This document shows positions 12,260 to 53,688 of a stretch of 64,000 bases of DNA, piece after piece. The notes beneath the pieces are model-generated. The model worked only from the letters and a program-made list of their open reading frames with translations. It did not search any database and was not told the DNA's origin. This stretch comes from Polyangia bacterium. GTDB lineage: Bacteria; Myxococcota_A; Polyangia; JAHFDS01; DATFWX01. Numbering within the stretch: position 1 is the first letter of the stretch; each line of letters starts with the position of its first letter. Made by a program: the position numbers and the translations under genes. Location: NCBI GenBank assembly GCA_035258845.1, contig DATFWX010000130.1, positions 17,497 through 81,496 of the forward strand, written 5' to 3'.

Positions 12260-12306
12260 TGTGCGGACTCCTTTCGTCGGAGCCCGCGGGCGCTTGATCC
12301 TTCGCG

Positions 12307-12334: not shown

Positions 12335-12363
12335 AGTCAAGAACCAACTCGCCGCGAGGCTCC

Positions 12364-12400: not shown

Positions 12401-12406
12401 GCTTCG

Positions 12407-12676: not shown

Positions 12677-12697
12677 TGTCTGCTTTTTTCCTCTCTT

Positions 12698-15355: not shown

Positions 15356-15366
15356 GGGGCAAGGCC

Positions 15367-23351: not shown

Positions 23352-23365
23352 CACGCTCTTTCAAC

Positions 23366-25090
<1,725 letters not shown>

Positions 25091-25150
25091 TTTAGCTCGA
25101 ATGGCCGCGCCGCGGTAGCCAGCCGCCTCGGGAGACTCTACACTGCGCTC

Positions 25151-36578: not shown

Positions 36579-39149
36579 GTGCGCTCGTGTTACAGTGATC
36601 CAGTGAGCGTGCTTCTGCTGGCCGCCGTGCTGGCGCAGACAACTGCTGATCTGGACGGTGATGGGCGGCCGGACACGGTGCGCGTGCTCGCTGACGGTCG
36701 GGTGCAGGCGGTCTCGGCCACCGACAGCCCGCTCGGCGAGCTCACGCTCGAGACGCAAGGCCACCGGCTTGTCAGCGCTCGGGTCGCGGTGCACCAGATC
36801 CAGGAGCACGCGGTGATCGAGGCGCGCGCCGCCCTGCGCGGCCGGGCCACCGACACTGCGCTGGTGGCCGAGGCGCGGGGGGATGCGCTCTATCTGATCT
36901 GGTCGGGCATTCTGGGCTCACAGGGGCGTGATCGGGAGTGGAGCCGCCATCTGGAGGTCACGACCGAGGCCATCCTGGTATACGAACGCTCCACGCGCAT
37001 CGCGCGCTGCGACGGCCAGCCAACCCGGCTGTTGCCGCGGGCCTGGGACTTCACGACCTACCGCATGCGGCCGGTGGAGCTGCCCCCCGACACGACCGGC
37101 CTGCCGCGACTGGCGCCGCGCCGCCCGGGCGAGCCCGAGCGCCCGGTCGAAGCCAGGCGACCCCTGCGCGTGTTCCGCCCCGCCGCCGGCTCGCGCGATG
37201 AGACCGCACGGACCGCCGGCGAGCTGACCGTACCCGTCGCCATCGGCGACGGCGACCCGCGCACGGCCTGGCGTGGCATCCCGGGCGATTTCGTGACCCT
37301 GCGGGCGGAAGCCCAGACCGAGGTGCGCGGCGTGGCGCTGACCGGCAAGCTCGGAAGGAGCGTGCTCGCGCTGGGTCCCGAGAAGCGCTTTCTGATCGAG
37401 GGCACGGGCTGGTTCGCGCTGCCCGAGTCGGTGCGCACCGACTGCGTCCAGCTCACGGTGGTCGAGGGCGCCAGCGAAATTGCAGACTTGGCCGTGCAGA
37501 CCGAAACCGACCCGCAGAAGCTGGCGGTCGAGGCCGCCGCCGGCTCCGGCATGGCAGCCCGACTGCTTCTGGCCGAAGGCGCGGCCGCGGTGGAGCGTCT
37601 GCGCGCATCCTTCGCGCAGGCGCGGGGCGAGGGCCGTCTGACCGCGCTCGAGGCCCTGGCTGCGGTCGGCTCGCCAGCCGCCCTGCCCGAGCTTGCGGAC
37701 GCGCTGCGGGCCGGCGACGCGCGCGAGCGCGAGATCGCAGCCCGCGGCCTCATCAAGATCGGAGCGCCCGCGGCTCCCGCCACGGCCCAGCTACTTCTGG
37801 ATGCGACCGCACCCGCGGCCGCGCGCGAGCGTGCGGCGGCCGTGCTGGGTGCGCTGCCGAGCCCGGATGCGCTTGCAGCGCTGCTGACGGCGGCGGGAAG
37901 CGGCGATCGCTCGCTGCGCAAAGCGGTGGTCGTGGCAGCCGGGGCGGCGGCCACGCCGAACGGTTACGACGCGCTGGTCGCATTCACGAGCGCGCAGTCG
38001 ACCGGCGCCCAGTCGACCGGCGCGCAGCCGACCGGCGGCCAGTCGACCGGCGCGCAGCCGACCGGCGCCCAATCGACCGGCACACAGTCGACCAGCGCCC
38101 AGCCGACCGGCGCCCAGCCAAGCAACTCGTCGAGCGCGCCCGACATCGCTCGTGCGGCCGACCTGGCACGCATCGTGGGCCTGCTGGCGCGGCGCGATGT
38201 CGCGCTACGCCCGGATGCGGTGCGCGTGCTCGCGGACCGCTTGCCCAAGGCCCAGGTCTTCGAGCTGCGGGTGCGCATCATCCAGGCGCTCGGCGCGACC
38301 GGCGATCCGCAAGCTGCGCGAGCGCTCGCGCAGAGTGCGCATGGCGATTCTGACGAGATCATCCGGTTCGAGGCCGTGCGTGCGCTGGCCGAGCTGCCGG
38401 GCCGGGAGGCGCTGTCGGCGCTCTTCGCTGCCCTCGGAGATGCGGCGCCGCGGGTGCGCGACGCCGCCGCGCTCGGATTGGGCGCGCGCAAGGAACCCTT
38501 TCCACCGGCCTCGCTGGCCCACACACTGCTCAGCGATCGCTGGATGTTCGTGCGGCGCGACGCGGCCGAGGCTCTGGGCGCGCACTGCGGCTCCGAGGCC
38601 ACCCCAGCCCTGCGCACGGCGGCGCGCGCCTCGGACGAGGACGACGACGTACGTCGCGCAGCCCTGGCCGCGCTGGTGCGATGCAAGGACGGGGTTGCGC
38701 CGCGCCTGGCCCTGCAGGTGGCCGCCGGCCCGGCCGAGGACGTGCACTTGCGCGCGGAGGCGTGCGGGCTCGCCAGCGCCACCGGCGACCCGGCCATCCT
38801 GGGCGATCTGACCGGCCTGGTGCGGCGCCTGCGCACGCAGGCAGCCAGCGACGATCGCGCCAGCGGAATTGCGACCGCATGTCTGCGCGCCCTGGGCGGG
38901 CTGGCGGCGGCCCCGCACGCGGGGGGCGCCCGCGCAACCGCGGAAAAGCTCCTGGTCGAGGTGGTGCAGGACGGCGCACATCCGCCGCTGCAGATTGCGG
39001 CTGTCGAGGGGCTCGCGCACTCGTGCGGCGACGCGGCCAAGGCAGCTTTGACCAAGGCGGCGACAACCGAGGCCCCGCTCCTTAGGCGGGCGGCCCGAAG
39101 CGCGCTCGATCGGTGTACGGTCGGCCACGGCTCGCCACCGTCGCACTGA
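36579..39149 (+). CDS. Secreted HEAT-repeat (PBS-lyase-type) protein with an internal (STGAQ)n low-complexity repeat
   Basis: GTG start with a putative signal peptide (VSVLLLAAVLAQTTA). Many HEAT-like repeats (VRRAALAAL, VRFEAVRALAEL...). 856 aa. Confidence 0.7.
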   Translation: MRSCYSDPVSVLLLAAVLAQTTADLDGDGRPDTVRVLADGRVQAVSATDSPLGELTLETQGHRLVSARVAVHQIQEHAVIEARAALRGRATDTALVAEARGDALYLIWSGILGSQGRDREWSRHLEVTTEAILVYERSTRIARCDGQPTRLLPRAWDFTTYRMRPVELPPDTTGLPRLAPRRPGEPERPVEARRPLRVFRPAAGSRDETARTAGELTVPVAIGDGDPRTAWRGIPGDFVTLRAEAQTEVRGVALTGKLGRSVLALGPEKRFLIEGTGWFALPESVRTDCVQLTVVEGASEIADLAVQTETDPQKLAVEAAAGSGMAARLLLAEGAAAVERLRASFAQARGEGRLTALEALAAVGSPAALPELADALRAGDAREREIAARGLIKIGAPAAPATAQLLLDATAPAAARERAAAVLGALPSPDALAALLTAAGSGDRSLRKAVVVAAGAAATPNGYDALVAFTSAQSTGAQSTGAQPTGGQSTGAQPTGAQSTGTQSTSAQPTGAQPSNSSSAPDIARAADLARIVGLLARRDVALRPDAVRVLADRLPKAQVFELRVRIIQALGATGDPQAARALAQSAHGDSDEIIRFEAVRALAELPGREALSALFAALGDAAPRVRDAAALGLGARKEPFPPASLAHTLLSDRWMFVRRDAAEALGAHCGSEATPALRTAARASDEDDDVRRAALAALVRCKDGVAPRLALQVAAGPAEDVHLRAEACGLASATGDPAILGDLTGLVRRLRTQAASDDRASGIATACLRALGGLAAAPHAGGARATAEKLLVEVVQDGAHPPLQIAAVEGLAHSCGDAAKAALTKAATTEAPLLRRAARSALDRCTVGHGSPPSH
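37995..38118. repeat. 15-bp tandem repeat CAGTCGACCGGCGCC x ~8 (in-frame VNTR encoding QSTGA pentapeptides)
   Basis: Near-perfect tandem copies are visible at 37995..38118 inside the HEAT-repeat gene. Confidence 0.85.
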
Positions 39150-39155
39150 GGCCGC

Positions 39156-39911
39156 TCACGCCAGCCCGGCCACGAAGATGGGCTGATAGTAGCCGCTGCG
39201 CTCGGGCGGGATCCACTCGAGCGACGTGAACCCAGCCGCCCGCGCCGCCTGCTCCAGCTCGGCGCGCAAGAGGGCGCGGCAGGTGGTGCGTCGAGTGTGC
39301 CCCTGCCACCCGCCCGGCGCTTCTCGCAGCACGATGTGGTCGAGCTGATAGCTCTTGCCGTCCGGCGCCCACGTCCACACCTGGAGCACCAGGCGCCGCG
39401 CGGGCGCGCTGCCGAGCAAGCGCGGCGGATCGAGCGCCGGCCGGTCCGTTACCAGCGCGTCGTAATCGCGCAGCGACGTCAGAAAGCGGCCGCCCGGACG
39501 CAGCGCCTGTCGAGCGGCGCCCAGCGCGGCGCCAAGCTCGCGGTCGGTGAGCAGATGCACGAGCGCGTTGTCGAAGCCGATCACGGTGCCGTAGCGACCG
39601 GCATCGGCCGCCTGCGCCACTCGCATGTCGGCCACCTCGAATGCGACTGCGACGCCGAGCCGCTCGGCCTGACGCCGCCCCCGCTCGACCAATGCCGGGC
39701 TGAGGTCGCGCGCCCGCACCTTTAGGCCGCGCAGCGCGAGCCCGAGCGCCTGCGTGCCCATGCCGGCCGCCACGTCGAGCACCGGATCGGGCGCCGGCCC
39801 GAGCAATCCTGCGATCAGCTCGCCCTGCCAGCGCATCCCCTTGTCCCAGTCCACGAAGATGGCCTCGTACTCGGGGGCCAGGTCGTCGTAAAAGCGCTGC
39901 GCGTCGGACAT
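39156..39911 (-). CDS. Class I SAM-dependent methyltransferase
   Basis: Motif I LDVAAGMGTQA; 252 aa. The ATG at 39911 was confirmed. Confidence 0.75.
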   Translation of the reverse strand: MSDAQRFYDDLAPEYEAIFVDWDKGMRWQGELIAGLLGPAPDPVLDVAAGMGTQALGLALRGLKVRARDLSPALVERGRRQAERLGVAVAFEVADMRVAQAADAGRYGTVIGFDNALVHLLTDRELGAALGAARQALRPGGRFLTSLRDYDALVTDRPALDPPRLLGSAPARRLVLQVWTWAPDGKSYQLDHIVLREAPGGWQGHTRRTTCRALLRAELEQAARAAGFTSLEWIPPERSGYYQPIFVAGLA

Positions 39912-39924
39912 CGCCGCTGGAAGG

Positions 39925-40593
39925 TCAGGGCACCTTCTCGAAGCAGATGGCACCGGGAAAGTCGCGGCAGCTCGAGGGCCCGCCGAGCGCAGCCGGAATG
40001 ACGAGCGCCGCCGTCAGCGCAACCACCACCGCGGCCCCGGTCGCCCACACGTACCAGTGGTCGTACCACTTGGGCGGCGGCGGCGGCGGCGGGCGGAACG
40101 GATTCTCGGACGCTGGCAGCTCGGTCAGGTTGGCGCGCACATCGATGGTCTGCCCCGCCACCGCTTCCACGCTGGTCAAGAAGTCGTGGTAGCCGCCCTT
40201 GACCACCCGCACCGACCGCTTGCCGGCCGCAAGCTCGGCCACCACGGGCTCGTCGGATACCTCACCCACGAACTTTCCGTCCACGAACACGCGCGCGCCC
40301 AGGATAGATGAGCTCAGGCGCATGATCCCGCTCACCGGAAGAAGGTCCACGTCGACCGGCGTGCGCTTGTGCTCGCGCACCGTCACCACATCCAGATAGT
40401 CGGTGAAGCCGCGCTTGGTGATTTTCACGGTGTGCTGCCCGACCGCGAGCGAGATGGGCCGCGCCATCGGGACCTTGCCCATGAGCCTTCCGTCGACGTA
40501 GATCTCGGCGCCCACGGTTCGCGAGTGCACGGCCAGCTCCCCGCGCGGTCCCGCGAGTAGGGGCAGCCATGCCAGCGCCAGAAGTCCTGTCAA
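39925..40593 (-). CDS. Tandem PEGA-domain protein with a C-terminal TM anchor
   Basis: Two PEGA-like beta modules (AEIYVDGRLMGKVP...; ARVFVDGKFVGEV...), a poly-Pro stretch and a TM. TTG start overlapping the stop of the giant TPR gene as TTGA. Confidence 0.6.
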   Translation of the reverse strand: MTGLLALAWLPLLAGPRGELAVHSRTVGAEIYVDGRLMGKVPMARPISLAVGQHTVKITKRGFTDYLDVVTVREHKRTPVDVDLLPVSGIMRLSSSILGARVFVDGKFVGEVSDEPVVAELAAGKRSVRVVKGGYHDFLTSVEAVAGQTIDVRANLTELPASENPFRPPPPPPPKWYDHWYVWATGAAVVVALTAALVIPAALGGPSSCRDFPGAICFEKVP

Positions 40594-43500
40594 CGCAACT
40601 CCGCCAGTGCCTCCTTGAGTGGCCCGTGATCGGGCTCGAGCTCGAGGCCCCGCTCGTACATATTACGCGCCTTGGGGCCTTCTCCCAACCGTGCGTGGAT
40701 CCGACCCAGCTCGAGGTACACGTCAGCCTTGGTCATCTTGCTGTCCGCGTCCAGGTTCTGCAGCAGCATCGATCGGAACACCTTGCGCGCCTTTTCCCAC
40801 TCGGACTGCTTGATGTACAGGCGCCCTAGCGCCGCCATCGTGGCGCCGTGCGTGGGGTCGATCGCAAATGCGGCCTGAAGGTGCTCGAGCGCCTGCGCCT
40901 CCTGGCCCTGCTGCTCCGCGATGGCGCCCAGCCGGAACTGCCAGCGCGCCGCTTCGCGGCTTCGTTTGCCCTTGAGCCGCTCGATCAGATCGGTATAGAG
41001 GCGACCTGCCTCGGCCACCCGTCCGGCCGAAAAATAGGCGTCGGCCAGGGGCTCGACCACCCGCGCGTCCTCGGGCGCCAGCCGGGCCGCCTGCTCCAGG
41101 TACGGCAGCGCCGCCGCCGGCGCGCCCAGCTGGACGCGCAGAAGCCGCCCCAGCTCGACCAGAAGGTCGCGCTTTTTGGCCGGGTCGGGCTCGGCCTGCT
41201 CGCGCAGCTTGAGAAGGTCGACCACCCGCCGCCAATCGGCCCGTTCGCGCGCGCGCTCGGCCAGCCCGTCCAGCGCCTCCGTGTGGGTGGGGTCGTACTG
41301 GATGGCCTGCGCCCAGTGCTCCTCTGCCAGCGCCGGATCACCCGAGCGCTGGGCCTCCACGCGCCCCATGCGGAAGTGGAGCTCGGCCGCCGGCCGACCG
41401 GTCGCGCCCAACGCGGCCGCCTGCTCCAGCGCCTGCGCGCACTTGTCCCACTCGCCCTGCGTCTCGTAGATGCGTGCGAGCTGCGTGATGGCGGCCACGC
41501 TCCGAGGATCCCGCGCCAGCACCTTTTCCAGAATCTCGGCCGCGCTGTCGCTGTTGCCGATGCGCCGCTCCCACAGATCGGCCAGCGCGAGCAGCTTCTC
41601 GATCTCGCCGGCATGGTCACGCCGCCCGGCCAGTAGCTCGGCGTGCTTGGCCAGAACGTCCGCCAGCTCATACCAGCGCTCCCCGGCCGTGAGCAGCCGC
41701 TCCAGCTCGCAGAGCACCGGCTCGCTCTCGGGCTGCGACTCCAGGGCCTGCGTCCAGAAGCCGATCGCCTCGTCGGCGCTCTCGCGCTTTTCCTCGGCCA
41801 AACGCGCCAGCTTGCCGTAGATGGCCAGCTGCTCGCCGGGCCCGCCAGCGGCCTGCAGCTGCTGCGTGAGCACCTCCTGCACGGCCAACCAGTCCCCGCG
41901 CTGCGTATGCACGGCCTCCAGCGCGGCCAGAACCTCCGCATCACCAGGCCGCGCGTCGAGCGCCGCCCGGTACATGTCGGCCGCGCGATCGGCGTCGCTC
42001 AGCCGCTCGCCGAACACCGCGCCCGCGCGCGCAAGCAGAGCGGCCTGCTGGGCCGGGTCGTCGGCCAGCCGAGCGCTCCGCTCGAGCACGGCCGCCAGCT
42101 CGGCCCACTCGCCCGCCGCCTCCAGCAGACGCGCCAGCTCTCGGCACGCATCCGCGTCGGTCTCGTCGGCATCGAGGGCCGCCCGCCACACCTCCACCGC
42201 CGCCTGACGATCGCGCAGCCGGCCCTCGTAAAGCCCGGCCGCCTCCGCCAGCAGGGCCCGCTTCTTTGACAGGTCCAGCTCGCCGTCCGCGCGCTTCTGC
42301 AGCACCTGGGCCAGCGCGCGCTCGTCGCCGCGCATGCGATAGATGCGCTCGAGCGCCTCCAGCGCATCCGAGTTTTCGGGATCGAGCCCCAGCACCTTGC
42401 GGTAGCGCGCCTCCGCACGCGCGGGGTCGCCGGCCTGGTCCAGCCACAGCGCCCCCGCTGAAAGCCCGAGGTCGCGCGCCGCCTCCCGCGAGCGCTCCTG
42501 GGCCGCGTCGGCCACCGCCTCGATGCGCGCGGCCGCGTCGGCGTGCCGGCCCAGGGCCGCCGCCAGCCGCGCCACCTCTTCGGCGTAGCGCAGCTCGCCC
42601 GGATCCTCGGCCAGCGCGCGCGCGTAGGCATCGAGCGCCGCGGCGGGGTCCTGGAGCTGTTTTTCCTGGATCTCGGCAATGCGCTCCAGCTGCCGCGCCC
42701 GCTCCAGCGGCTCATCCTGGAGCTGCAGCTTGACCTCGAGCACGCGCACCACGTTCTTGGCGTCGGCCCGGGTCTCGAACACCGGCTCCAGGACCTCGAT
42801 GGCCTCCTCACGATAGGTCACGTCGTCGAGGTACTTGGCAATCCCGGAAATGGCCTCGTCGTGGCCCGGCTCGCGATCGAGCACCTGCCGCCAGGCCGCG
42901 ATGGCGCCCTCATGATCGACCAGCCGCTCCACCCGCATCAGGCCCAGCCGGTACAGAAACCCGGCCTGCTCGCCCGGATCCAGGCTCGCCTGCGCCTCCC
43001 GCTCGAGCACTTCCGCCAGCTCATCCCAGCGACCCAGGGTCTCCAGCAGCCGATCGAGCGCCCCCAGAGGCCCGCTCTCTTCGCCCGGGAACTCGAGCGC
43101 GGTCCGCAGCTTCTCGACTGCGCGCGCGGCATCGCCCAGCGCGTCCTCGTAGATGGCCGCCAGCTTGAGCGCCAGCGCGCGCCCGATCTCGGCGTCGTAC
43201 TGGCTCTGCAGCCGATCCTCGTACAGCGCCGCCAGGTCGGCGAACGCACCGCGCCCCGCCGCCAGCCGCTCCAGCTCGCGCTGCGCATCGGCGTCGCCGG
43301 CGTCCTCGGCCAGCGTGCGCCCCCAGGCCGCAAACGCCGCCTGCAGATCGCCCCGGCCAGTCTCGTGCAGCGCGGCCAGATCGGCGAGCAGCTGGCGCCG
43401 CCGCGCCGGATCGGTCTCCGCCTCCAGGCGCAGCTCGTACACCTCGGCCAGCCGATCCCATTCCTTGCGGGCGCGCAGATAGGGCTCGAGCGCGGCCGCC

Positions 43501-46500
43501 GCCACCTCGCGCGTGCCTTCCGCGCGCGTGAGCGCAAACAGGGCATCGCGTGCGCCCGCATGCTCGGGCAGCGTCTCCAGCACCTGTTTGTAGCGGGCCA
43601 GGGCCGCATCGACGTCGCCGGTGTCGTCCTCCAGCACCCGCGCAGCCCGGAACCGGAGCTCCTCGCGCTCGGCCGGCCGCGTTGCCACAGCGATGCGCGC
43701 CTCCAGAACCTCGAGCAGGTCGGCCCACATCTTCTCGGCGTCATAGAGCCGGTCGAGCGCCGCCAGCGCCTCCAGGTCCTCCGGATCCAGCTCGCGCGCC
43801 TGCTTGTAGCAACCGATGGCTTCGTAGCGGTCCTCGATCTGGGTCTCGTAAACGCGAGCCAGCTTGTAGAGCAGCGCGCGTTTTGCCGCGGCGTCGACGC
43901 CGAGCTCGACCTTGCGAGCCAGCACCAGCGCCAGCTGGCGCCACTCGCCGGCCGCTTCGTGCAGGCTCGCCAGCGCCTCCAGCGCCCGCGAGTCCTCGTC
44001 ATCGATGCCCAGCACGCGCTGCCAGATCTCGACCGCGCGCGCGGGCCGCGCCAGGGTCTTCTCCTCCAGCTCGGCCACCCGGTACAGCAGCGTCTTGCGC
44101 AGCACCAGATCGTCGCTGAGGTCACTGCGCCGCTCCATCACGTCGATCAGCTCTTCCCAGCGCCGCTCGCTCTCGAGCAGCTTCTCGAGCGCCCCCAGCG
44201 CCCGCACATCGTCGTCCTTGGCCGCCAGCACGCGCCGCCAGGCCTCGATGGCAGCGGGCAGATTGCGCAGCCGCTCGGCGTACAGCTCGGCCGCGCGGCC
44301 ATGCAGCTGCATCGCCAGCTCGGGATCGTAGGTCGCCTCGGCTGCCTTCTCGAGCACGCCGACCAGATCGCCAAACCGATCCAGCTCGGCGGACAGGCGC
44401 TCGAGCTCGGACAGCGTCCCCTCCGCCCCCGGGTCTTCCGCGAACGCGCGCGCCAGCGCGTCCCAGGCCCGTTTGCGATCGCCGCCCCGGGCCTCGTGCA
44501 GGCGCGCGATCTCGCGCAGGATCTCGACCCGCCGCCCCGAGTCCTCGATGAACTCGAGCTGGGCGTCGTACGCGGCCGCCAGCTTGGCCCACTGGTCGCC
44601 GCCCCGGTAGATCGGCTCCAGGATCTGCGCGATGCGAAAGCGGTGATCTTTGTCCGCGCTCAGCCGTTCGAGCGCAGCCAGCGACTCCTTGTGCGCGGGA
44701 TCGCGCTGCAGGCACTCCTCGTAGGCGTCGATGGCCGACGAGATGTCCTCCAGGTTCTGCTCGAAAATCCCGCCCAGCCGCAACTTGAGCGCCAGGTAGG
44801 CCGCGCCCTCGGCGCGGTCGAGCTGCTGCAGGAGCAGCTCCACCAGATCGTGCCACCGGTTCTCGGCCGACAAGAGCCGATCGAGCGCGCTCTGCGCGGC
44901 CGCATCTTCGGGATCCTGCTCCAGGATGCGCCGCCACGCCGAAATGGCCTGCTCGCGGTCGGAAAGCTCGACCTCGTGCACGCGCGCGCTCTTGACCAGG
45001 AGCTCCTTGCGCACGCCGGCTTCGGTTTCCTTGTCGGCCAGCTGCTCGTACAGGTCGAGCAGATCGCGCCAACGCGCCGCCCGCTGCAGCGAGCGCTCGA
45101 GCGCCTGCACGACGGTCGCATCGCCGGGCGATTGCTCGAGCAGCCTCTCGTAGCACTGGCGCGCGCGCTCGACATCGCCCAGCCGCTCGTCGTAAAGCCC
45201 CGCCAGCGTCCAGCACACGGCCGACCAGGCCGGTCCGGGCTCGAGCGTGTCGTCGAGATAGCTTTGATAGGTTTCGGCCAGATCCTTCCAGCGCTCGAGG
45301 ATGCCGGAAAGACGCACCAATTGATCGCGCGCGCCCCGGTCCTCGGGGCTCTCGCGGAACACCTTGCCGTACCAGCGGAAGGCCTGCTCCAGGTCCTCGA
45401 GCTGCTCCTCGTACAGGCGCGCGATGCGCCGCGTGAGCTGCATCCTCAGCTTGGGCTCCTCGGCCGCCAGCAGGCGGATCTCGTAGATGCGGACCAGCTT
45501 GGGCCAGTCCTGGCGCGCCGCGTACACCGGCTCCAGCACCTCGGCGGCGGCCCCCTGTTGCGCCGGATCCTCGAGGTAGCGCTCGAGCGCCGCGATGCCG
45601 CCCGCATGACCAGGCTCGCCGCCCAGGGTGGCCCGATAGTTCTCGACCGCGCGATCGGGATCGCGCAGCACCCGCTCGTACAGCTCGCCGAGCTGGAAGC
45701 GCAGCCGCACCGCTTCCTCGAGATCCTCGGCGAAGCCGAGCCGCCGCTCCAGAAGGTCGGCCAGGTCGGCCCACCGCTTGGCGCCGCGGTACAGGCTTTC
45801 CAGCGCCGCCAGGGCTTCGCGGTCCGAGGTCGCGATCTCCAGAATCTGCTCGTGCAGCGAGATGGCCTCGCCTTCGCGTTCCAGCTTTTCCTGACAGAGC
45901 GCGGCCGCGCGCGCGAGGTAGTCGCGTTTCTCGTCGAGATCGCGCGAGAGGTCGGCTCGCTTCTGATAAACCTCGAGCAGCGGTTCCCAGTCCTGCGCTT
46001 CCAGATACAGGGCCTCCAGGGCCGCCAGCGCGCGCGGATGATCGGGTGCCGCGTTGAGCACGCGCTGGTAGTACTCGCGCGCCAGCTCCACGTCGCCGAG
46101 CTTTCCGCGGGCCTGATCCGCCACCGCCAGATAGATGCGCTGCTGGGCCTCCGGATCCAGAACGTCACTTCCGACCTCGCGATACAGCTCGACCAGCTCG
46201 GCCTGCCGCCTCCGATCGGCCGCGATGCGCTCGAGCGCATCCAGAATGACCGGCAGATCGCCGCCCGCCAGCGCGCCCTTGGCCGCGCGCGCGTAGGTGT
46301 CGAACGCGCCGTCCGAGTCGCCGAGCTTCTCCTTCAGCTCGGCGGCCGCGCGCAGCCGCTGCACCTTGACCTCCTGGTCCGACACGGTTTCGGCCAGTAG
46401 CTCGTGCAGGGCCACCTGCTTGGCCAGGTCGCCGCGCGCGTGATAGATGGGCTCCAGCACCTCGGCCGCCTTGAGCTTGAGCGCCTCGTCGGCCAGTGCC

Positions 46501-49500
46501 CGCTCCATGCCCGCGATGGCCTTGCCGTCGGCAGGCTCGATCGCCAGGATGTCCTGCCACCTTTCGACCGCCACCTCGAGCCGCCCCAGCTTGTCCTCGG
46601 CCAGCGTGGCCAGCCGATGCATGAGCGCGAGCCGCGCCGGCTGGTCCTCGCAAAGGGTCAGCTCGCGGATCAGCACCTCTCGCAGATCGGCCCAGCGGCC
46701 GGCCGCCTCGTACAGGCGCCCCAGAGCATGCAGGGCCTGCAGGTCGTCGGGCAGCTCGTCCAGGATGGCCAGATAGCTGTCGATGGCCTCGGCGGCCACA
46801 CCCAGCTCGCGCTCCTGGATCTCGGCCATGCGCCAGTACAGGTCGCGCCGTTCGCGCGCCTCGTGCGACAGGTCGACACGCCGCTTGAGGATGCCGAGCT
46901 GGTCACGCCACGAGGAGCCGGACGCATAGAGCCGCTCGAGCGCATCGAGCGCGCTCGCGTCGTCGGCCTCCTGCTCCAGAACCTCGCGGTAGGTCGCCAC
47001 CGCGCCCGCAGCGTCGCCCAGCTTCTGCTCGCGGATCTGCGCCACCCGGAGCAGCAGGTCCTTGCGCGCGGCCGCATCGTCAGCCCAGCCCGCCTGCAGG
47101 AGCAAGATGTCGGTCAGATCGGTCCACGCCTCGGCGCGCTCGTACAGGGCCGCCAGCGCGGCCGCCGCCGGCTGCGCGGTCGTATGGTTTTTTGGATCCA
47201 GATCGAGCAGCCGCCGCCAGGCGCCCTGAGCCCGCGCCGGGTCGTACAGCTTTTCGTCGTAAATCCGGGCGGCGCGCTCCAGGTACTCGGCGCGCAGGGC
47301 CAGGTCGCCGGGCGGCGCCAGCCCGATGGATTCCTCCCACGCCTGCGCGACGTCGTTCCATTTCTCGAGCAGCTTACCCAGCCGCTGCACGTTGTCGCGT
47401 GCGCGCTCGTCGGCCGGATCCATGCGCAGGCCCTCGCGCCAGGTCAGAAACGCGGCCTGACGGGCGGCCAGCTTGTCTTCCTGCAGCTCCGCGATGCGCG
47501 CGGTCAGCTCGCGCGCCTGCACCGGGTTGGCAGCTTCGCGCCGCACCTGCAGAACCACGGCCAGCTTGGCCCACGCTTCGTCGTGCTCGAACAGGGGCTC
47601 CAGGACGCCGGCCACGCGCTGGCGCAGCTCGGCGCGGCCCATCAGCCGCTCGAGCACCTTGCGCGCGCCCTCGTGCCCGGGCGAGGCCGCCAGCACCTCC
47701 TCGAGCAGATCGACCGCACCCGGGAGGTCCTGCAGCTTGGTCGCGTGCAGCTCAGCGCGCTTGAAGCGGAGGGCGGCCGCTTCCTCGGGCGCGCGCGCAT
47801 AAGGCAGCTCGTTCTGCAAGAGCTCATCCAGCTGGCCCCATTTCTCGCCCAGCGCGAGCACGCGCTCGAGCGCCTTGAACGAGCGCGCGTTGCCCGGATC
47901 GAGCTCCAGGACGTGCCGATACATCTCGACCGCGTGCTCCTGGTCCTCGAGCACGCCCTCGTCGAGGTCGCAGATGTCGAACAGGAGCTGCCGGCGCTGG
48001 CCCGGGTCGGCCTCGCGCTGCTGGCGCTCGAACAGCAGGGCCCGCAGATCCTGCCACTTCTCTTCCTGGCGGTAGATGCGGGCCAGCGACTGGAACGCAC
48101 GCTCGCCCGCCTCGCCGGTCGCCGTGCCCGCCACCTTGGCGTAGAACTCGGCCGCCTTGTCGCTGCGGCTGAGGCGGCTGTCGTAGATGTCCGCGATCTC
48201 GGTGAAGATCTCGCGGGCCGTGTCGGGGTCGACCGCGCCCGCCGCCTGCTCGAGGCGTGCGGCCAGATCGTCCCAGCGATCGAGCGCCTCGGCCAGCTGA
48301 CTGAGCATCCGGCGCAGGTCGGCCTCGCCGGGCTGCTTCTCGAGCACCCGCGCTGCGTGGTCATAGGCCTTGGCTCCATCGCCCAGCTTGCGGTAGATAG
48401 AAGCCAGGCGGCGCGACAGCGCCAGTCGCTCGCCGTCCTCGGGCGCGGCCGCGTACAGGATCTCGAGCGCCCGCGCGAGCTTCTGCGGATCGGCCTCGCG
48501 CTCGTAGAGCGGCAGAAGCAGTCGGGCGGCTTCGGCGCGATGCACCTTGTCGTCGAGCAGCCGTTCGATCGCGAGCGCCGAGCTGCGATGCCCCGGCAGC
48601 ACCTGCAGCGCCTGCTTGTAGGCAGCCAGCGCGCGCGCGCGGTCGCCGAGCTGCTGCTCCAGGATCTTGCCCTGATCGGCCCACAGCGCCGCCTTGGTGT
48701 CGTCGGCGTCGGCGAGCGCGAGCTTGTCCTCGAGCACCCCGATGACCTCGGGCCATTCCTGGCGCGCGGTGTGAATGCGCTCGAGCGAGGACAGGATCTT
48801 GCTGGTCTCGCGGGCCGCGCCGGCGGAGCGCGCGGCCAGAAGCGCCTTGCGGTAGGTGGCCGCGGCGGCGGCCAGATCGCCCAGCCGCTCCTCCTCGATG
48901 AACGCGATGCGCGTGAGCAGCTCGAGCTGCTTCTGCGGCTCGCGCTCGGCGTCCGCACGGCGCCTGTAGATCTCACACAGCTCGGGCCACGCCGACTGCT
49001 GCGTGAAGATCTGCTCGAGCGCCGCCGACGCCTCGGGGTCGCTGCCGTCGCGCGCGATGACCTCTTCCCAGTACCTGCGGGCATCGACCGGGCGACCAGT
49101 CTTTTCGCGCGCGATCCGCGCGAGCCGCCGAAACACGACCACCTGCTCGGCCGGGTCGGACATGCCCTCGGCGCGCCGGGCGTACAGCGCCGACAGGTCG
49201 TCCCACGCGCCCGCTTCCTCGGCCAGCCGCTCGAGGTCCTTGACCACGACCGGGTCGTCGGAAGCCAGCTCGTAGGCCTTGGAGCACCATTGGAAGGCCA
49301 GACCCTTGGAGCCCAGCTTCTGCTCGCACAGGAGGCGGATGTCGCGCAGAAGCTCCAGCCGCTCGGGACGCCCTTTTTCGTGGCCCAGCAGGATCTCGTA
49401 GGTGGCCAAAAGGCGCGCCCACTTTTCGGTCGATTGATAGATGGGCACCAGAGCGCGCGCGGCCGAAAGGTTGCCGGGCTCGAGGGCCAGGATGCGCTCG

Positions 49501-51806
49501 TAGGATTTGACCGCGCGCTCGGGCCGGCCCAGCTTGTCGATGTAGATCTCGGCGATGCGGCCGAGCAGCCGGATGCGGCCCGGCGTGTCGGTCGAACGGT
49601 CGACCACTGCCAAAAGCGCCTCGGCCAGCTCCTCCCACTGCCCGGTTTCCGCGTACAGTCGCTCGAGCTGGGAGAAATCGCCCTGCTGCGCGAACAGCTC
49701 GCGCAGCGTGCGCTGGGCTTTGGCGTGCCCGGGCTGGAGCTGCAGGATCTCGCGATACACGTCGGCGGCCCGCGCCTGCGCGCCCAGCCGCTCGACCAGG
49801 AGAACGCCCGCGCGCTCGAGCATGGCAACCCGCGCCGCCGGCTCGCGCGCCGCCGCCGCCTGCCGCCTGAGCACCTCGCACAAGGCGGGCCAGCGCTTGT
49901 CGCGCTCGTAGAGCTGGGTCAGCGCAGCCAGGGCTTCCGGATCATGCTCGTCCAGCTCCAGGACCTGGTTCCACAGCCCCACCGCCTCGCGCGCGTCGCC
50001 CAGCCGCTCGGCGGCCAGGCGCGCCATCTGGGCCAGCCGCGCGCGCCGCTCGCTGCCGGCCAGACGCGGCAGCTCGCGCCGGTCCAGATCCAGGAGCGCC
50101 TTCCAGGAGCGCCGGCGCGCATAGATGTCGCGCAGGGACGTGATGGTTTGCGCGTCCTCGGGCTCGAGCACCAGGATCTCCTCGAGCGGCCGGACGGCCT
50201 GGTTGGCATTGGCGAACTTTTCCAGCCACAGCTGGGCCACCCGCCGCAGGAGCGCGACCTTGTGCGCGCGATCGCCGGCCGCGTCGGCGCGCTTCTGCAA
50301 AACCGCGATGAGATCGTTCCAGCGCCCGAGCGCCTCGTACTTGTCGGCCAGCGCGCCCAGCGCGCCCTCGTGATCGGGCCGCAGCGCCAGGATGTTCTGG
50401 TAGGTGCCGACCACCATCGCGTCCAGGCCCAGCTTGTCCCGGTAGATCTCGGCCACCTCGAGGTGCAGCGTGATCTTGGCGTCGACCTGGGCGGCCGGCA
50501 GGGCCTCGATCTCGTCCTTGAGCAGCTCGAGCAGCGCGTTCCACTTCTCGGTTTTGCGATAGAGCCGCCGCAGCGCCGCCGCCGCCTCCTCGTGCTTCGG
50601 ATCCATCCGCAGCACGACTTTCCATAGATCGATGGCTTTCTCGGTCGCGCCCGCCTCGTTTTCGGCCGCCCGCGCCATCTCCATGGCCAGCGCCAGGCGC
50701 CGCCCGGGATCCGATTCCACCTTGGCCGCCGCCTGCAGCACGGCCAAAAGCTTCTGCGCCTCGCCCCGCGCCCCAAAGAAGGCCCGGAAGAACTCGAGCG
50801 CGCTCTTGTGGGCCGGATCGGCTTTGCGCACGCGCCGGAAAAACGGCTCGGCGCTCTCCATATCCTGCAGCTTCCTCCAGTACAGCATGCCGATCTGCAG
50901 ATACAGGGCCAGCTCGTGCTCGCCGCGCGGACGCGCCTTGAGCGCGGTCTCGTACACCTTGACCAGAGCCGCCCAGTCGCCGGCCTCGGTGAGCTGGTCG
51001 ACCAGCACCCGCAGCGCGCGCGGGTTGGCCGGGTCGACGGTCAGAACCTTCTTCCAGGCCTCCAGCGTGCGCGCCTGCTCGACGCCGCGCCGCTCCGAGA
51101 GCTCGGCCAGCGCGACCAGGACCTGCGCCCGTTCATCCTTGGTCTGCGCCGACTCGGCGCGTGACTTGAGCAGCGCCTCCAGCTCGTCCCAGGCCGCGCG
51201 CGCGCGCAGCCGCCGCTCCAGGTGCGCGCTCGCCTTGCGGTTGCGCGCATCCAGCTCCAGGGCCTTGCGCAGAAGGCCCTCCCCTTCCAGGGCCTGGGGC
51301 GCATATTTCAGGTACAGCTCGGCCGCCGACAGATAGAGAGTGGTGGCGAGCTGGCGGTCCTGCGCGCCCTTGGCCTCGCCCAGGTACCGGGCCGCAATGG
51401 CCTCCCAGTTTTCGCGCAAAAGAGACAGATGCGACAGCACCTCCTGGGCGGCCGCGTCATCGGGCCGCAGCTCGAGCACCTTCTGGAAGCATCCGATGGC
51501 CTCCTGCTCGCGCAAAAGCTCGTCCGACAGCACCCGCCCCTTTTCGTAGAGAAGGTCGGCCCGCCGGGCCGTTTCGCCGGTCCAGCCCAGCTCCAGATCG
51601 AGCAGGCGCGCCACCAGCTCCCAGTCGGAGCGCTCGCGATGGACCCGCCGGGCGTTGCTCAAGGCCCGTCCTGCGGCCTCCAGAGAAAGCCCATTGTCTT
51701 CCTTGACCTTGGGGGCCAGCGCCTCCAGTGCCGCCAGGGCCCGCTCGTTATCCGGCTCGGTTTCCAGGATTGCTAGATAGCTCTGGAGCTCAGCCTTCAT
51801 GGCCAT
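40590..51806 (-). CDS. Giant TPR-like repeat protein (3738 aa, about 90 tandem 36-40-aa helical repeats; no signal peptide, no catalytic domain recognised)
   Basis: A continuous 11.2-kb ORF with a strongly periodic pattern (W..DL..LLE..A.L..D.....LL.R.A.I.E..LGD...A...Y..VLE.DP.H..AL.ALE.LY). The antisense ORFs of 1285 and 1407 aa were rejected. Confidence 0.85.
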   Translation of the reverse strand: MAMKAELQSYLAILETEPDNERALAALEALAPKVKEDNGLSLEAAGRALSNARRVHRERSDWELVARLLDLELGWTGETARRADLLYEKGRVLSDELLREQEAIGCFQKVLELRPDDAAAQEVLSHLSLLRENWEAIAARYLGEAKGAQDRQLATTLYLSAAELYLKYAPQALEGEGLLRKALELDARNRKASAHLERRLRARAAWDELEALLKSRAESAQTKDERAQVLVALAELSERRGVEQARTLEAWKKVLTVDPANPRALRVLVDQLTEAGDWAALVKVYETALKARPRGEHELALYLQIGMLYWRKLQDMESAEPFFRRVRKADPAHKSALEFFRAFFGARGEAQKLLAVLQAAAKVESDPGRRLALAMEMARAAENEAGATEKAIDLWKVVLRMDPKHEEAAAALRRLYRKTEKWNALLELLKDEIEALPAAQVDAKITLHLEVAEIYRDKLGLDAMVVGTYQNILALRPDHEGALGALADKYEALGRWNDLIAVLQKRADAAGDRAHKVALLRRVAQLWLEKFANANQAVRPLEEILVLEPEDAQTITSLRDIYARRRSWKALLDLDRRELPRLAGSERRARLAQMARLAAERLGDAREAVGLWNQVLELDEHDPEALAALTQLYERDKRWPALCEVLRRQAAAAREPAARVAMLERAGVLLVERLGAQARAADVYREILQLQPGHAKAQRTLRELFAQQGDFSQLERLYAETGQWEELAEALLAVVDRSTDTPGRIRLLGRIAEIYIDKLGRPERAVKSYERILALEPGNLSAARALVPIYQSTEKWARLLATYEILLGHEKGRPERLELLRDIRLLCEQKLGSKGLAFQWCSKAYELASDDPVVVKDLERLAEEAGAWDDLSALYARRAEGMSDPAEQVVVFRRLARIAREKTGRPVDARRYWEEVIARDGSDPEASAALEQIFTQQSAWPELCEIYRRRADAEREPQKQLELLTRIAFIEEERLGDLAAAAATYRKALLAARSAGAARETSKILSSLERIHTARQEWPEVIGVLEDKLALADADDTKAALWADQGKILEQQLGDRARALAAYKQALQVLPGHRSSALAIERLLDDKVHRAEAARLLLPLYEREADPQKLARALEILYAAAPEDGERLALSRRLASIYRKLGDGAKAYDHAARVLEKQPGEADLRRMLSQLAEALDRWDDLAARLEQAAGAVDPDTAREIFTEIADIYDSRLSRSDKAAEFYAKVAGTATGEAGERAFQSLARIYRQEEKWQDLRALLFERQQREADPGQRRQLLFDICDLDEGVLEDQEHAVEMYRHVLELDPGNARSFKALERVLALGEKWGQLDELLQNELPYARAPEEAAALRFKRAELHATKLQDLPGAVDLLEEVLAASPGHEGARKVLERLMGRAELRQRVAGVLEPLFEHDEAWAKLAVVLQVRREAANPVQARELTARIAELQEDKLAARQAAFLTWREGLRMDPADERARDNVQRLGKLLEKWNDVAQAWEESIGLAPPGDLALRAEYLERAARIYDEKLYDPARAQGAWRRLLDLDPKNHTTAQPAAAALAALYERAEAWTDLTDILLLQAGWADDAAARKDLLLRVAQIREQKLGDAAGAVATYREVLEQEADDASALDALERLYASGSSWRDQLGILKRRVDLSHEARERRDLYWRMAEIQERELGVAAEAIDSYLAILDELPDDLQALHALGRLYEAAGRWADLREVLIRELTLCEDQPARLALMHRLATLAEDKLGRLEVAVERWQDILAIEPADGKAIAGMERALADEALKLKAAEVLEPIYHARGDLAKQVALHELLAETVSDQEVKVQRLRAAAELKEKLGDSDGAFDTYARAAKGALAGGDLPVILDALERIAADRRRQAELVELYREVGSDVLDPEAQQRIYLAVADQARGKLGDVELAREYYQRVLNAAPDHPRALAALEALYLEAQDWEPLLEVYQKRADLSRDLDEKRDYLARAAALCQEKLEREGEAISLHEQILEIATSDREALAALESLYRGAKRWADLADLLERRLGFAEDLEEAVRLRFQLGELYERVLRDPDRAVENYRATLGGEPGHAGGIAALERYLEDPAQQGAAAEVLEPVYAARQDWPKLVRIYEIRLLAAEEPKLRMQLTRRIARLYEEQLEDLEQAFRWYGKVFRESPEDRGARDQLVRLSGILERWKDLAETYQSYLDDTLEPGPAWSAVCWTLAGLYDERLGDVERARQCYERLLEQSPGDATVVQALERSLQRAARWRDLLDLYEQLADKETEAGVRKELLVKSARVHEVELSDREQAISAWRRILEQDPEDAAAQSALDRLLSAENRWHDLVELLLQQLDRAEGAAYLALKLRLGGIFEQNLEDISSAIDAYEECLQRDPAHKESLAALERLSADKDHRFRIAQILEPIYRGGDQWAKLAAAYDAQLEFIEDSGRRVEILREIARLHEARGGDRKRAWDALARAFAEDPGAEGTLSELERLSAELDRFGDLVGVLEKAAEATYDPELAMQLHGRAAELYAERLRNLPAAIEAWRRVLAAKDDDVRALGALEKLLESERRWEELIDVMERRSDLSDDLVLRKTLLYRVAELEEKTLARPARAVEIWQRVLGIDDEDSRALEALASLHEAAGEWRQLALVLARKVELGVDAAAKRALLYKLARVYETQIEDRYEAIGCYKQARELDPEDLEALAALDRLYDAEKMWADLLEVLEARIAVATRPAEREELRFRAARVLEDDTGDVDAALARYKQVLETLPEHAGARDALFALTRAEGTREVAAAALEPYLRARKEWDRLAEVYELRLEAETDPARRRQLLADLAALHETGRGDLQAAFAAWGRTLAEDAGDADAQRELERLAAGRGAFADLAALYEDRLQSQYDAEIGRALALKLAAIYEDALGDAARAVEKLRTALEFPGEESGPLGALDRLLETLGRWDELAEVLEREAQASLDPGEQAGFLYRLGLMRVERLVDHEGAIAAWRQVLDREPGHDEAISGIAKYLDDVTYREEAIEVLEPVFETRADAKNVVRVLEVKLQLQDEPLERARQLERIAEIQEKQLQDPAAALDAYARALAEDPGELRYAEEVARLAAALGRHADAAARIEAVADAAQERSREAARDLGLSAGALWLDQAGDPARAEARYRKVLGLDPENSDALEALERIYRMRGDERALAQVLQKRADGELDLSKKRALLAEAAGLYEGRLRDRQAAVEVWRAALDADETDADACRELARLLEAAGEWAELAAVLERSARLADDPAQQAALLARAGAVFGERLSDADRAADMYRAALDARPGDAEVLAALEAVHTQRGDWLAVQEVLTQQLQAAGGPGEQLAIYGKLARLAEEKRESADEAIGFWTQALESQPESEPVLCELERLLTAGERWYELADVLAKHAELLAGRRDHAGEIEKLLALADLWERRIGNSDSAAEILEKVLARDPRSVAAITQLARIYETQGEWDKCAQALEQAAALGATGRPAAELHFRMGRVEAQRSGDPALAEEHWAQAIQYDPTHTEALDGLAERARERADWRRVVDLLKLREQAEPDPAKKRDLLVELGRLLRVQLGAPAAALPYLEQAARLAPEDARVVEPLADAYFSAGRVAEAGRLYTDLIERLKGKRSREAARWQFRLGAIAEQQGQEAQALEHLQAAFAIDPTHGATMAALGRLYIKQSEWEKARKVFRSMLLQNLDADSKMTKADVYLELGRIHARLGEGPKARNMYERGLELEPDHGPLKEALAELR

Positions 51807-51930
51807 CCCCTGTCAGGGTTTCTCAAGTGGCGAGACCCCTGATGATAGCTGAAGCGCTGCGCCGAGTTCAACGGCGGATTGACCCAAGACGCGCGGCGTG
51901 GCATCCAAAGACGGAGTGCCCGCCTCGCCC

Positions 51931-53688
51931 ATGCCCCGGATCGGCGCGTACCTTCGCCCGTACAAGCTGCTGCTGGCAGGCGGAACCGCGTGCCTGCTCC
52001 TGACCAACCTGGCCGCGGTCGGCGTGCCCTGGGCGCTCCAGCGCGGGATCGACGCGCTGCGCCAACCCAACGCGCTTGCGGACGCACGCACGGCCGCCCT
52101 CCTCATCGCCGCCTTTGCGCTCGCCCAGGCGGTCATTCGCATTGTTTCGCGCGTCACCGTGTTCAACGCCGGCCGCAACGTCGAGTACGACCTGCGCGGC
52201 CAGCTGCTCGACAAGCTGCTTTCCCTGCCCCCCTCGTACTACCGCACGCACCCGACCGGCGACCTCATGTCGCGCCTGACCAACGATCTGGCGGCGGTGC
52301 GCGTAATGTTCGGCTTCGGCATCCTCAACGTGGTCAATACGCTGTTCATCTACAGCCTGGTCCTGTGGCGGATGGTCGCGCTCGACGGGCGGCTCACGCT
52401 GCTTTCGCTTCTGCCCTATCCCACCTTGATTCTGGCCGGGCGCGCGTTCGGGCGCGTGATGTTTGCGCAGAGTCGCGCGGTCATGGAGCACCTGGGCACG
52501 ATGTCGACCGCGGCCCAGGAGGACTTTTCGGGCATCGCGATGATCAAGCACTACGCGCTCGAGGACGTGCGCGGCAAGAACTTCGAGCGCCTGTGCGCCC
52601 AGTTCGTGGCCAAGAACATGAAGCTCGTGCGCACGCGCGGCGTGATGTGGCCGATCATGGGCCTTTTGTCCGCGCTGGGCACGCTCATCGTGCTGTGGGC
52701 GGGCGGTCGCGCGGTCATTGTGGGCCGGCTGACCCTGGGCCAGTTCGCGGCCTTCAACATGTACCTGGTGCAGCTGGCCTGGCCGACCCTGGCCTTCGGC
52801 TTCATCATCACGGTGCTGCAGCGCGGTCTGGCGTCCTGGGAGCGGCTGCGCGAGATCCTGACTGCCGAGGTCACCCTGCACGACGGCACCGGCGACGGGA
52901 TTGCGCATGCAGACGTGCGCGGCGCCATGGAGACGCGCAACCTGACCCTCGAGCTGGGCGGCACCAAGGTTTTGGATGGGGTGTCGATCAAGGTGCCGGC
53001 CGGCTCCACGCTCGCCATCGTGGGCCGCACCGGTTGCGGTAAATCGACGCTGGCCGAGGCCCTGGCGCGTCTTACCGAGGTTCCCGACGGCACCGTGTTC
53101 CTGGACGGCCGCGACGTCAACACGCTGCCGCTCGACGCGGTGCGCGGGGCGGTCGGCTATGCGCCCCAGGAAGCCTTCCTGTTTTCGACCACCATTCGCG
53201 AGAACATCGAGCTCGGGCAGCGCTCGGCCGATGGGCAGCGCTGGGAGCTGGCGCAGCTCATCGGGGCGGCCGGCCTGACGCGCGACATCGCGGGCTTTCC
53301 GGCCGGAGTCGAGACCGTGGTGGGCGAGCGCGGCATCACGCTTTCGGGCGGACAGCGGCAGCGGGTCGCGCTGGCGCGCGCGCTCGCCACGGCCCCGCGC
53401 GTGCTCATCCTGGACGATTCGCTGTCCTCGGTCGATGCGGAGACCGAGCGGGAGATTCTGACCGGCCTGCGCCGCATGCTGGCCGGCCGCACGGCGGTCA
53501 TCATCTCGCACCGGGTGGCGGCGGTGCAGCACGCCGATCAGATCCTGGTGCTGGAAGAGGGCCGGATCGCCGAGCAGGGCCGCCACGCCGAGCTGGTGGC
53601 GCGTGGCGGCATCTACGCCGAGCTGTACCAGCGCCAGCTTCTGGCTGAAGAAATCGAGCAGGCCCCGGCGGTGGCGGTGCAACAGTGA
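51931..53688 (+). CDS. ABC exporter, fused permease/ATPase (heterodimer partner 1, MsbA/ABCB type)
   Basis: 6-TM domain plus NBD (Walker A GRTGCGKST, signature LSGGQRQR, Walker B LILDD). The alternative GTG start at 51898 adds 11 aa. Confidence 0.85.
   Translation: MPRIGAYLRPYKLLLAGGTACLLLTNLAAVGVPWALQRGIDALRQPNALADARTAALLIAAFALAQAVIRIVSRVTVFNAGRNVEYDLRGQLLDKLLSLPPSYYRTHPTGDLMSRLTNDLAAVRVMFGFGILNVVNTLFIYSLVLWRMVALDGRLTLLSLLPYPTLILAGRAFGRVMFAQSRAVMEHLGTMSTAAQEDFSGIAMIKHYALEDVRGKNFERLCAQFVAKNMKLVRTRGVMWPIMGLLSALGTLIVLWAGGRAVIVGRLTLGQFAAFNMYLVQLAWPTLAFGFIITVLQRGLASWERLREILTAEVTLHDGTGDGIAHADVRGAMETRNLTLELGGTKVLDGVSIKVPAGSTLAIVGRTGCGKSTLAEALARLTEVPDGTVFLDGRDVNTLPLDAVRGAVGYAPQEAFLFSTTIRENIELGQRSADGQRWELAQLIGAAGLTRDIAGFPAGVETVVGERGITLSGGQRQRVALARALATAPRVLILDDSLSSVDAETEREILTGLRRMLAGRTAVIISHRVAAVQHADQILVLEEGRIAEQGRHAELVARGGIYAELYQRQLLAEEIEQAPAVAVQQ

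Follow-up and report, generated by a model that had tools for sequence, protein, structure and literature searches.

A giant cytoplasmic TPR-like solenoid protein of a Polyangia bacterium as a putative distant relative of the gliding motility protein GltI/AgmK

The window analyzed here, that is, the whole stretch of DNA under study, comprises 64,000 nt from a Polyangia bacterium (contig DATFWX010000130.1 of GenBank assembly GCA_035258845.1, positions 17,497 to 81,496) and contains a giant gene at 40590..51806 on the minus strand. This gene begins with ATG and encodes a cytoplasmic protein of 3738 aa that is composed of tetratricopeptide repeat (TPR)-like units and has a mass of ~411 kDa and a net charge of -154. 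An initial annotation of this DNA had described the same open reading frame (ORF) with the same coordinates and length, and had maintained that there is no knowledge of what a protein of this kind scaffolds. This last statement can be revised because the giant protein is, as judged by the comparisons described in the following, a full-length homolog of the GltI/AgmK family.

The giant ORF is uninterrupted, and in the sense frame the GC content at the third codon position (GC3) is 0.89 overall compared with 0.80 at the first position (GC1), with GC3 values of 0.86–0.92 for each block of 300 codons, which is the coding signature of a genome with ~70% GC. High-GC genomes yield long spurious ORFs, and two ORFs of more than 1200 aa are present on the plus strand within the limits of the giant gene (1285 aa at 42543..46400 and 1407 aa at 46404..50627), as the initial annotation had noted from its ORF listing. 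These observations would fit the explanation that the giant ORF is an artefact, either a repeat array expanded during assembly or a non-coding high-GC open frame, and that the antisense ORFs are the real genes. However, the relation between codon positions is reversed in both antisense ORFs (GC1 of 0.886 and 0.907, GC3 of 0.813 and 0.787, respectively), mirroring the sense frame, and they are therefore shadow frames and not genes. Moreover, DNA copies within the giant gene share only 60–80% identity in stretches of no more than 89 nt, no 216-nt array was detected in the gene by Tandem Repeats Finder, and both length and sequence are kept in ~30 independent assemblies, so that the earlier worry about collapse or expansion of the array in assembly does not hold; the length of the orthologs and their unit-by-unit match to the window protein exclude such an artefact. 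A structural model of high confidence likewise speaks against an artefact, which we regard as having a negligible probability; the giant gene is a real gene. The earlier warning that the antisense frames may mislead gene callers was well placed, and at least one public record has antisense shadow ORFs of an ortholog called as genes. In this record (ENA ERZ28573533, scaffold_2941, positions 4569-16360; locus L091), in which the upstream synteny is as in the window (a histidine kinase-GGDEF gene followed by the ABC exporter pair), the ortholog is divided by one frameshift, the two parts being open over 4569-10337 and 9596-16360, respectively. Of the giant gene, just the C-terminal 2119 aa are called in the public annotation, which places antisense ORFs of 608 and 1037 aa without Pfam matches over the N-terminal half.

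A BLOSUM autocorrelation of the giant protein has a single dominant peak at 72 residues (+0.07 versus a background of -0.75 ± 0.11) and minor peaks at 144, 89, 305–307, and 377–379 residues. Using a hidden Markov model (HMM) built iteratively from the protein itself, we identified 50 units of ~68–72 aa that extend from residue 8 to residue 3737 and have the consensus ERWADLAEVLERRLEAAEDPAERAALLLRLAELYEEKLGDAARAVEAYRRVLELDPGDAEALAALERL. Each unit comprises two non-equivalent TPR-like hairpins, and the total amounts to ~100 hairpins and eight odd helices. The almost unbroken helical array reported initially is therefore present, but the period of 36–40 residues given at the time has to be replaced by a four-helix unit of 72 aa in 50 copies. 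The array also contains one insert of 17 aa (aa 705-721, 49644..49694) and seven mutually similar inserts of 21 aa, all encoded on the minus strand like the gene itself. The latter share the motif ...ALERxLxD....AAxVLEP(I/V)Y....W.KL and are located at aa 1084-1104 (48495..48557, ...LLLPLY...), aa 1389-1409 (47580..47642, ...VLEPLF...), aa 1770-1790 (46437..46499, ...VLEPIY...), aa 2077-2097 (45516..45578, ...VLEPVY...), aa 2383-2403 (44598..44660, ...ILEPIY...), aa 2760-2780 (43467..43529, ...ALEPYL...), and aa 2990-3010 (42777..42839, ...VLEPVF...), with successive spacings of 305, 381, 307, 306, 377, and 230 aa. The fifth of these LEP inserts is among the most conserved stretches in the orthologs.

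Pfam searches with the giant protein returned TPR-type families only, for example TPR_2 with 127 bits and TPR_7 with 125 bits (cut-offs ~27), and the model ARM_TT21_5th is also matched. In NCBIfam, equivalogs of a generic TPR type (e.g., PrsT, MamA, and LapB) are matched below threshold only and were disregarded; the matches to GltE and Tgl are weak as well (21.7 and 30.4 bits, respectively, versus a cut-off of 225). No membrane segment was found, the maximal Kyte-Doolittle mean over 19 residues being 1.05. Because units, inserts, and short linkers use essentially all residues, the chain cannot accommodate an enzymatic domain, in agreement with the initial annotation, which had listed neither signal peptide nor transmembrane (TM) segment nor enzymatic domain.

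We modeled one super-repeat (aa 2010-2316) with AlphaFold2 using an alignment of six paralogous segments, which are non-overlapping super-repeats of the protein. The model has a mean predicted local distance difference test score of 94.9 and contains 17 helices in 307 aa, with four helices per unit and one extra helix, which corresponds to the fourth 21-aa insert and lies between four-helix units. Its best matches in Foldseek are TPR superhelices (consensus CTPR, OGT, SPINDLY, Naa15, and IFT-A); the TM-scores are only ~0.3, which indicates that the hairpin topology is TPR-like and that the long-range geometry is different. The protein thus has in common with eukaryotic TPR scaffolds (OGT, SPINDLY, Naa15, IFT-A TTC21B/IFT139) and designed consensus CTPR arrays a solenoid of helix-turn-helix hairpins, whereas sequence identity to them is only 12–20%, its array is 5–10 times longer, and it repeats a double hairpin of 72 aa whose halves are not equivalent. 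Tandem hairpins that match TPR profiles and an all-helical solenoid model, as found here, are the marks of the TPR superfamily, and the giant, cytoplasmic, domain-free TPR-like solenoid proposed initially is borne out by Pfam, hydrophobicity, the unit map, and the model. The extended length of ~0.5 µm proposed with it is about five-fold too long: the homologous GltI of 3822 aa has been modeled at ~1100 Å (PMC11761067), and by analogy the giant protein would be roughly 0.1 µm long.

To identify orthologs, we scanned one genome per species with a profile of the C-terminal 520 aa and kept 80 loci. Relatives of the giant gene were present in at least 195 species genomes of Myxococcota, and all of the kept loci are from metagenome-assembled genomes (MAGs) of this phylum that are labeled Polyangia, Kofleriaceae, Haliangiales, or Nannocystineae. 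The ORF has a length of 3746–4060 aa in the ~30 loci that hold the complete gene, and it is split by frameshifts in a few others (e.g., L002, L024, L043, and L091). A search for homologous proteins with pieces of 512 aa and 520 aa yielded fragments of less than 910 aa only. Among 32 full-length orthologs, identity to the window protein is 40–50% over ~3700 positions, with even conservation from end to end. The best unit-to-unit matches fall on the diagonal, with mean scores of 125–150 for orthologs compared with 101 when a unit of the window protein is matched to its best paralogous unit in the same chain. Even conservation together with matching of units in order argues that the array is old, fixed in length, and selected throughout; the whole length of the giant gene is under purifying selection.

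An exhaustive HMMER search with the C-terminal 1200 aa of the window protein against 1.84 billion representatives retrieved 2344 representatives (50% clustering) below 1e-30, and the best 150 of these are almost all 3000–4200 aa in length. Two classes can be distinguished among these 150 on the basis of the C-terminus. In class A (89 representatives, typically ~3720–3850 aa), the protein ends at the conserved C-terminal TPR region, as does the window protein, which has 0 residues beyond this region and in which the last unit ends at the stop codon. In class B (48 representatives, typically ~3800–4200 aa), a further 565–600 residues (~570 in general) follow this region; the last ~350 of them lie past the last unit and form a non-TPR, helical C-terminal domain that matches no Pfam family. 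A search with the class B C-terminal extension gave a single match, the frameshifted end of a gltI-type gene beside a gltJ-like gene. Named members of class B include proteins from Bradymonadia (WP_111729458.1 of Lujinxingia litoralis) and from a Polyangiaceae MAG; therefore, classes A and B do not reflect a simple split between Polyangia and the rest. The two classes may be old paralogs.

Class B connects the window protein to GltI. GltI (AgmK, MXAN_4863) is a giant cytoplasmic protein of 3822 residues with many TPRs; its gene was hit when transposon mutants were screened for gliding defects, and the protein is recruited to bacterial focal adhesions (PMC11761067; PMC3169522). According to predictions, it offers six superimposable sites to the GltG FHA domain and two to the GltJ GYF domain, and GltJ itself is a TM protein that contains a Zn-ribbon and a GYF domain (PMC11761067). 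The homologs of MXAN_4862/4863 listed by Luciano et al. (PMC3169522, Table S3) include the pair Adeh_3310/Adeh_3311 (4074 aa), Anaeromyxobacter proteins of 4074–4104 aa that adjoin a zinc-finger protein (GltJ), a Stigmatella protein of 4089 aa, and the split pair sce2920+sce2921 of Sorangium (1774+2081 aa) beside a glt cluster. Directly after the gene for the class B protein P0191 (4076 aa), and likewise at the frameshifted locus L088, we find a gene for a membrane protein with Zn_ribbon_4 and GYF_2 domains, and on the basis of the domain composition of GltJ, and of the correspondence to the Adeh_3310/Adeh_3311 pair, we take these to be gltI-gltJ pairs. The C-terminal 1200 aa of the window protein match P0191 with E = 8.8e-253, and the best high-scoring segment pair between the two proteins is collinear from end to end (aa 3-3679 versus 1-3602, 24% identity). 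The unit HMM derived from the window protein detects 44–50 units in class B proteins; the 17-aa insert is conserved at the equivalent place in relatives of both class A and class B, and after it the class B proteins have 21-aa LEP inserts that are spaced as in the window protein; P0191 has six of these, at ~305-aa intervals, compared with seven in the window protein.

The window protein thus shares with GltI and its orthologs (Adeh_3311, A2cp1_3455, STAUR_5650, and sce2920+sce2921) a comparable size (3738 aa versus 3822–4104 aa), a cytoplasmic location, a repeat region devoid of other domains, the 72-aa four-helix unit, the LEP punctuation, collinearity with gltJ-linked members over the full length, and a restriction to Myxococcota. 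By contrast, the other TPR proteins of myxobacterial motility systems (GltD/AgmU, GltE/AglT, GltC/AgnA, and Tgl) are exported to the periplasm or outer membrane and comprise only 250–1200 aa. On the strength of these sequence comparisons, the giant protein appears to be a distant, shortened relative of GltI/AgmK in a distinct clade and not a protein of an unknown kind.

Several class B and other family members have features of their own. P0163 (7720 aa, 35 matched stretches), P0211 (5284 aa), P0245 (5223 aa), and P0254 (4623 aa) are outsize members from metagenomes, the largest being twice as long as usual. Long acidic, EE/DE-rich low-complexity inserts are found in the class B proteins P0165 (aa ~243-405 and ~1196-1300) and P0154 (aa ~349-457); such inserts, which occur in Bradymonadia and other lineages and are absent from class A, lie between N-terminal units and consist in part of tandem 'SEESDVSDAEEVLEEL'. 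In two different lineages a TPR protein of ~300 aa is encoded directly upstream of the class B giant gene on the same strand (L084:9041-9916 and L092:1004-1933), and in L092 an FHA-sigma54 activator gene follows the giant gene; for class B proteins without gltJ linkage, these small TPR proteins and the activator are possible conserved partners. In a low-GC Myxococcales MAG, a same-strand chemosensory module composed of a CheY-like receiver, CheW, a methyl-accepting chemotaxis protein, and a CheA-CheW-receiver hybrid is located upstream of a gltI-gltJ pair (L086:3801-9639).

Immediately downstream of the giant gene, a gene on the same strand (39925..40593) encodes a PEGA protein of 222 aa. Its TTG start overlaps the TGA stop of the giant gene, and this TTGA overlap, which can be read directly in the sequence (...GAG TTG CGT TGA / TTG ACA GGA...), supports the translational coupling of the giant gene to a two-PEGA-domain membrane protein that had been proposed initially. 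The protein consists of a short N-terminal signal-like segment, two PEGA domains (PF08308, 88 bits in two stretches versus a cut-off of 20.8), a Pro-rich linker, a C-terminal TM segment (aa 186–204), and a 19-aa tail (GGPSSCRDFPGAICFEKVP) that is predicted to be cytoplasmic. In its orthologs, the signal peptides are canonical and the PPPPKW..W.W-TM ending is shared, which shows the protein to be periplasmic, held by one anchor, and to have a short tail in the cytoplasm. The PEGA gene is followed by a gene for a class I S-adenosylmethionine (SAM) methyltransferase of 251 aa (39156..39911, minus strand; Methyltransf_25, 48.9 bits). The initial annotation had identified this enzyme correctly and placed it 14 bp after the PEGA gene; its ATG at position 39911 in fact lies 13 nt after the PEGA stop, and this start is also the one called publicly on Logan contigs from this organism.

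We determined the distribution of the neighboring genes by tblastn of the window's neighboring proteins against 78 related loci. The initial annotation had suggested that the giant gene, the PEGA gene, and the methyltransferase gene form a three-gene unit, and as one functional unit they might, for example, comprise a scaffold and an enzyme that modifies the scaffold or its cargo. The common strand, the TTGA overlap, the 13-nt gap, and the lack of a terminator-like site between the genes are consistent with this proposal, as is the recurrence of the PEGA-methyltransferase arrangement in two other samples of the same organism. However, a counterpart of the methyltransferase was detected in none of the 78 loci within 10 kb downstream, even at E < 0.01; the enzyme matches the generic models Methyltransf_25/11/12 only and no curated NCBIfam equivalog; and of the 64 related loci with 2.5 kb or more of downstream sequence, only 10 contain the PEGA gene, each of them a closer relative of the window. 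The three-gene arrangement is thus a lineage-specific juxtaposition, and the proposal of a functional unit, which is contradicted for the family as a whole, is in our view quite improbable. Based on these distributions, the methyltransferase appears to be a chance neighbor of the giant gene, and the giant-PEGA pair alone seems to have some evolutionary depth: in seven loci the PEGA gene lies directly downstream on the same strand within ~60–250 nt, and in 2 of the 10 it is on the other strand.

The commonest conserved neighbor is a HEAT-repeat gene. In the window, it encodes a HEAT_2-repeat protein of 856 aa (36579..39149, plus strand), is convergent with the methyltransferase gene, and is separated from it by 6 nt; in 43 related loci a homolog lies on the downstream side of the giant gene, always in convergent orientation. 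The N-terminus of the protein resembles a signal peptide (..SVLLLAAVLAQTTA/DLDGDG..). An assignment of MXAN_4864/65 as a HEAT-repeat gene beside M. xanthus gltI was dropped because the published account calls these probable false ORFs. The gene queA is near the giant gene in 29 related loci. For the divergent class A representatives P0125 and P0207, the contigs are short and gave no information on neighbors. On the other side, a divergent pair of half-ABC exporter genes (596 and 600 aa, overlapping by 4 nt) occupies 51898..55487 on the plus strand, and this pair is divergent upstream of the ortholog in L002, L032, L037, L043, L049, L052, L065, L066, L068, and L091. Among the related loci with sufficient upstream sequence, about half contain the pair, and it is also present in L002 and L091. 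The divergent promoter region postulated initially was corroborated insofar as the 91-bp gap contains a sigma70-like match for the giant gene (TTGAAC-18-TATCAT, 51842..51871, minus strand), which is a match to the consensus only and the sole one in 38900..52200, that is, in 13 kb, where 0.4 would be expected. The remainder of the window encodes housekeeping functions (rimP-nusA-infB, rpsO-pnp, recJ, queA-tgt-yajC-secD, pfk, and asd).

What the giant protein might do can be approached from GltI. The full statement that it is a ~0.1-µm cytoplasmic alpha-solenoid scaffold of the GltI/AgmK superfamily that provides a multivalent platform with periodic docking sites is one that we favor by a small measure over its negation. 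That the protein is a GltI-superfamily scaffold is highly probable, and for its serving a machinery of the Agl-Glt type we consider the chances to be even. Like GltI, the protein would probably lie beneath the inner membrane and serve there as a multivalent platform. The number of the LEP inserts, their regular spacing, and their mutual similarity match the six "superimposable" FHA sites predicted in GltI and suggest that they are docking elements; the seven 21-aa inserts are therefore probable docking sites for the cytoplasmic domains or tails of membrane proteins, the predicted partner at such sites in Myxococcus being the FHA domain of GltG. With a rise of ~0.3 Å per residue (1100 Å for 3822 aa in the GltI model), successive inserts would be 9–11 nm apart, and one giant molecule could line up several envelope complexes. 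Both the C-terminal domain and an adjacent gltJ are found in class B only, which suggests that this domain provides the link to GltJ. Because class A proteins have neither, their link to the membrane must differ, and in the sub-clade of the window a speculative candidate for a tether is the co-translated PEGA protein, with its periplasmic domains, single TM segment, and short cytoplasmic tail.

Several observations weigh against assigning a GltI-like role to the window protein. The identity between the window protein and the GltI type is ~24–27%, and neighbor-joining with the 330 C-terminal residues common to both classes places 87 of the 89 class A members in a separate clade without any class B protein. 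Orthology between classes A and B is not detectable at the level of individual units. Class A, including the window protein, lacks the C-terminal domain of class B. A gltJ-like gene (Zn-ribbon+GYF) was detected neither in the window nor in 78 class A loci by tblastn with two GltJ-like queries, and there is no glt, agl, or FHA gene within the 64 kb; adjacency to gltJ or a position inside the G1 glt cluster is, however, not universal even in class B. The assignment of class B to the GltI type rests on gene-pair context, length, and the literature, with P0191 and L088 standing for the GltI type in the comparison, and it is from number, spacing, and similarity that we infer a correspondence between LEP inserts and FHA sites. 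Finally, the presence of class B in a Polyangiaceae MAG leaves room for class A being an old paralog with a different job.

These points lead to a different explanation, according to which class A is an ancient GltI paralog that scaffolds a non-gliding complex of the envelope, of secretion, or of cell shape, is tethered in the window's lineage via the PEGA protein, and has retained no more than the general design, a long solenoid in which docking sites recur at intervals. In addition to the separate clade without the GltI C-terminal domain and gltJ linkage, and to class B within Polyangia, which is compatible with coexistence of both types, this explanation would account for the conserved housekeeping setting of the class A genes (the HEAT protein, queA-tgt-yajC-secD, and the ABC pair, rather than a glt cluster) and for the tight, same-strand coupling to the PEGA gene in seven loci. 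Moreover, Luciano et al. (PMC3169522) list no homolog of MXAN_4863 for Haliangium ochraceum, yet class A proteins are common among MAGs of Haliangiales and Kofleriaceae; our literature search on the distribution of GltI in Polyangia found nothing specific. On the other hand, no observation points positively to any alternative partner, the PEGA gene and the ABC pair are each present in just a fraction of the loci that could show them, and the neighborhood is a weak guide, as class B genes are often away from glt genes too. We therefore regard this explanation as possible but doubtful. The same holds for its wider form, for which we see a minority chance: class A would be a second, Polyangia-wide giant cytoplasmic 'ruler' with a fixed length of ~3750–3850 aa and seven evenly spaced docking helices and not a gliding scaffold. 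If this were true, class A would position different envelope complexes at ~10-nm intervals along the inner membrane and would represent a bacterial scaffold without a characterized counterpart beyond its distant cousin GltI.

The comparison of the window protein with class B bears on GltI itself, which is less well understood than any other part of the bacterial focal-adhesion motor, is difficult to approach by genetics and structural work because of its size, and has so far been a multivalent organizer by prediction only. The 2344 representatives described above make the GltI-like proteins a very large family of Myxococcota with a family-wide plan of strictly conserved length, a 72-aa unit, and a super-repeat of ~305 aa marked by a conserved one-helix LEP insert. 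Its members divide according to whether they carry the C-terminal domain, and a whole clade lacks both this domain and gltJ adjacency. For the gliding-motility field, this points to two concrete candidates, namely the inserts as sites of docking and the C-terminal domain as the module that couples the protein to GltJ.

Elsewhere in the window, the GC3-based filter chose no gene in 3842-6863, where overlapping ORFs of 250–800 aa are present on both strands (e.g., 2942-5344 and 5083-6837, both on the plus strand). Two Ser/Thr protein kinases are encoded on the minus strand at 6863-9784 and 23366-25270; one of the two is fused to an FGE-sulfatase-like domain, and the other adjoins a gene for a TPR protein of 266 aa (22554-23354).

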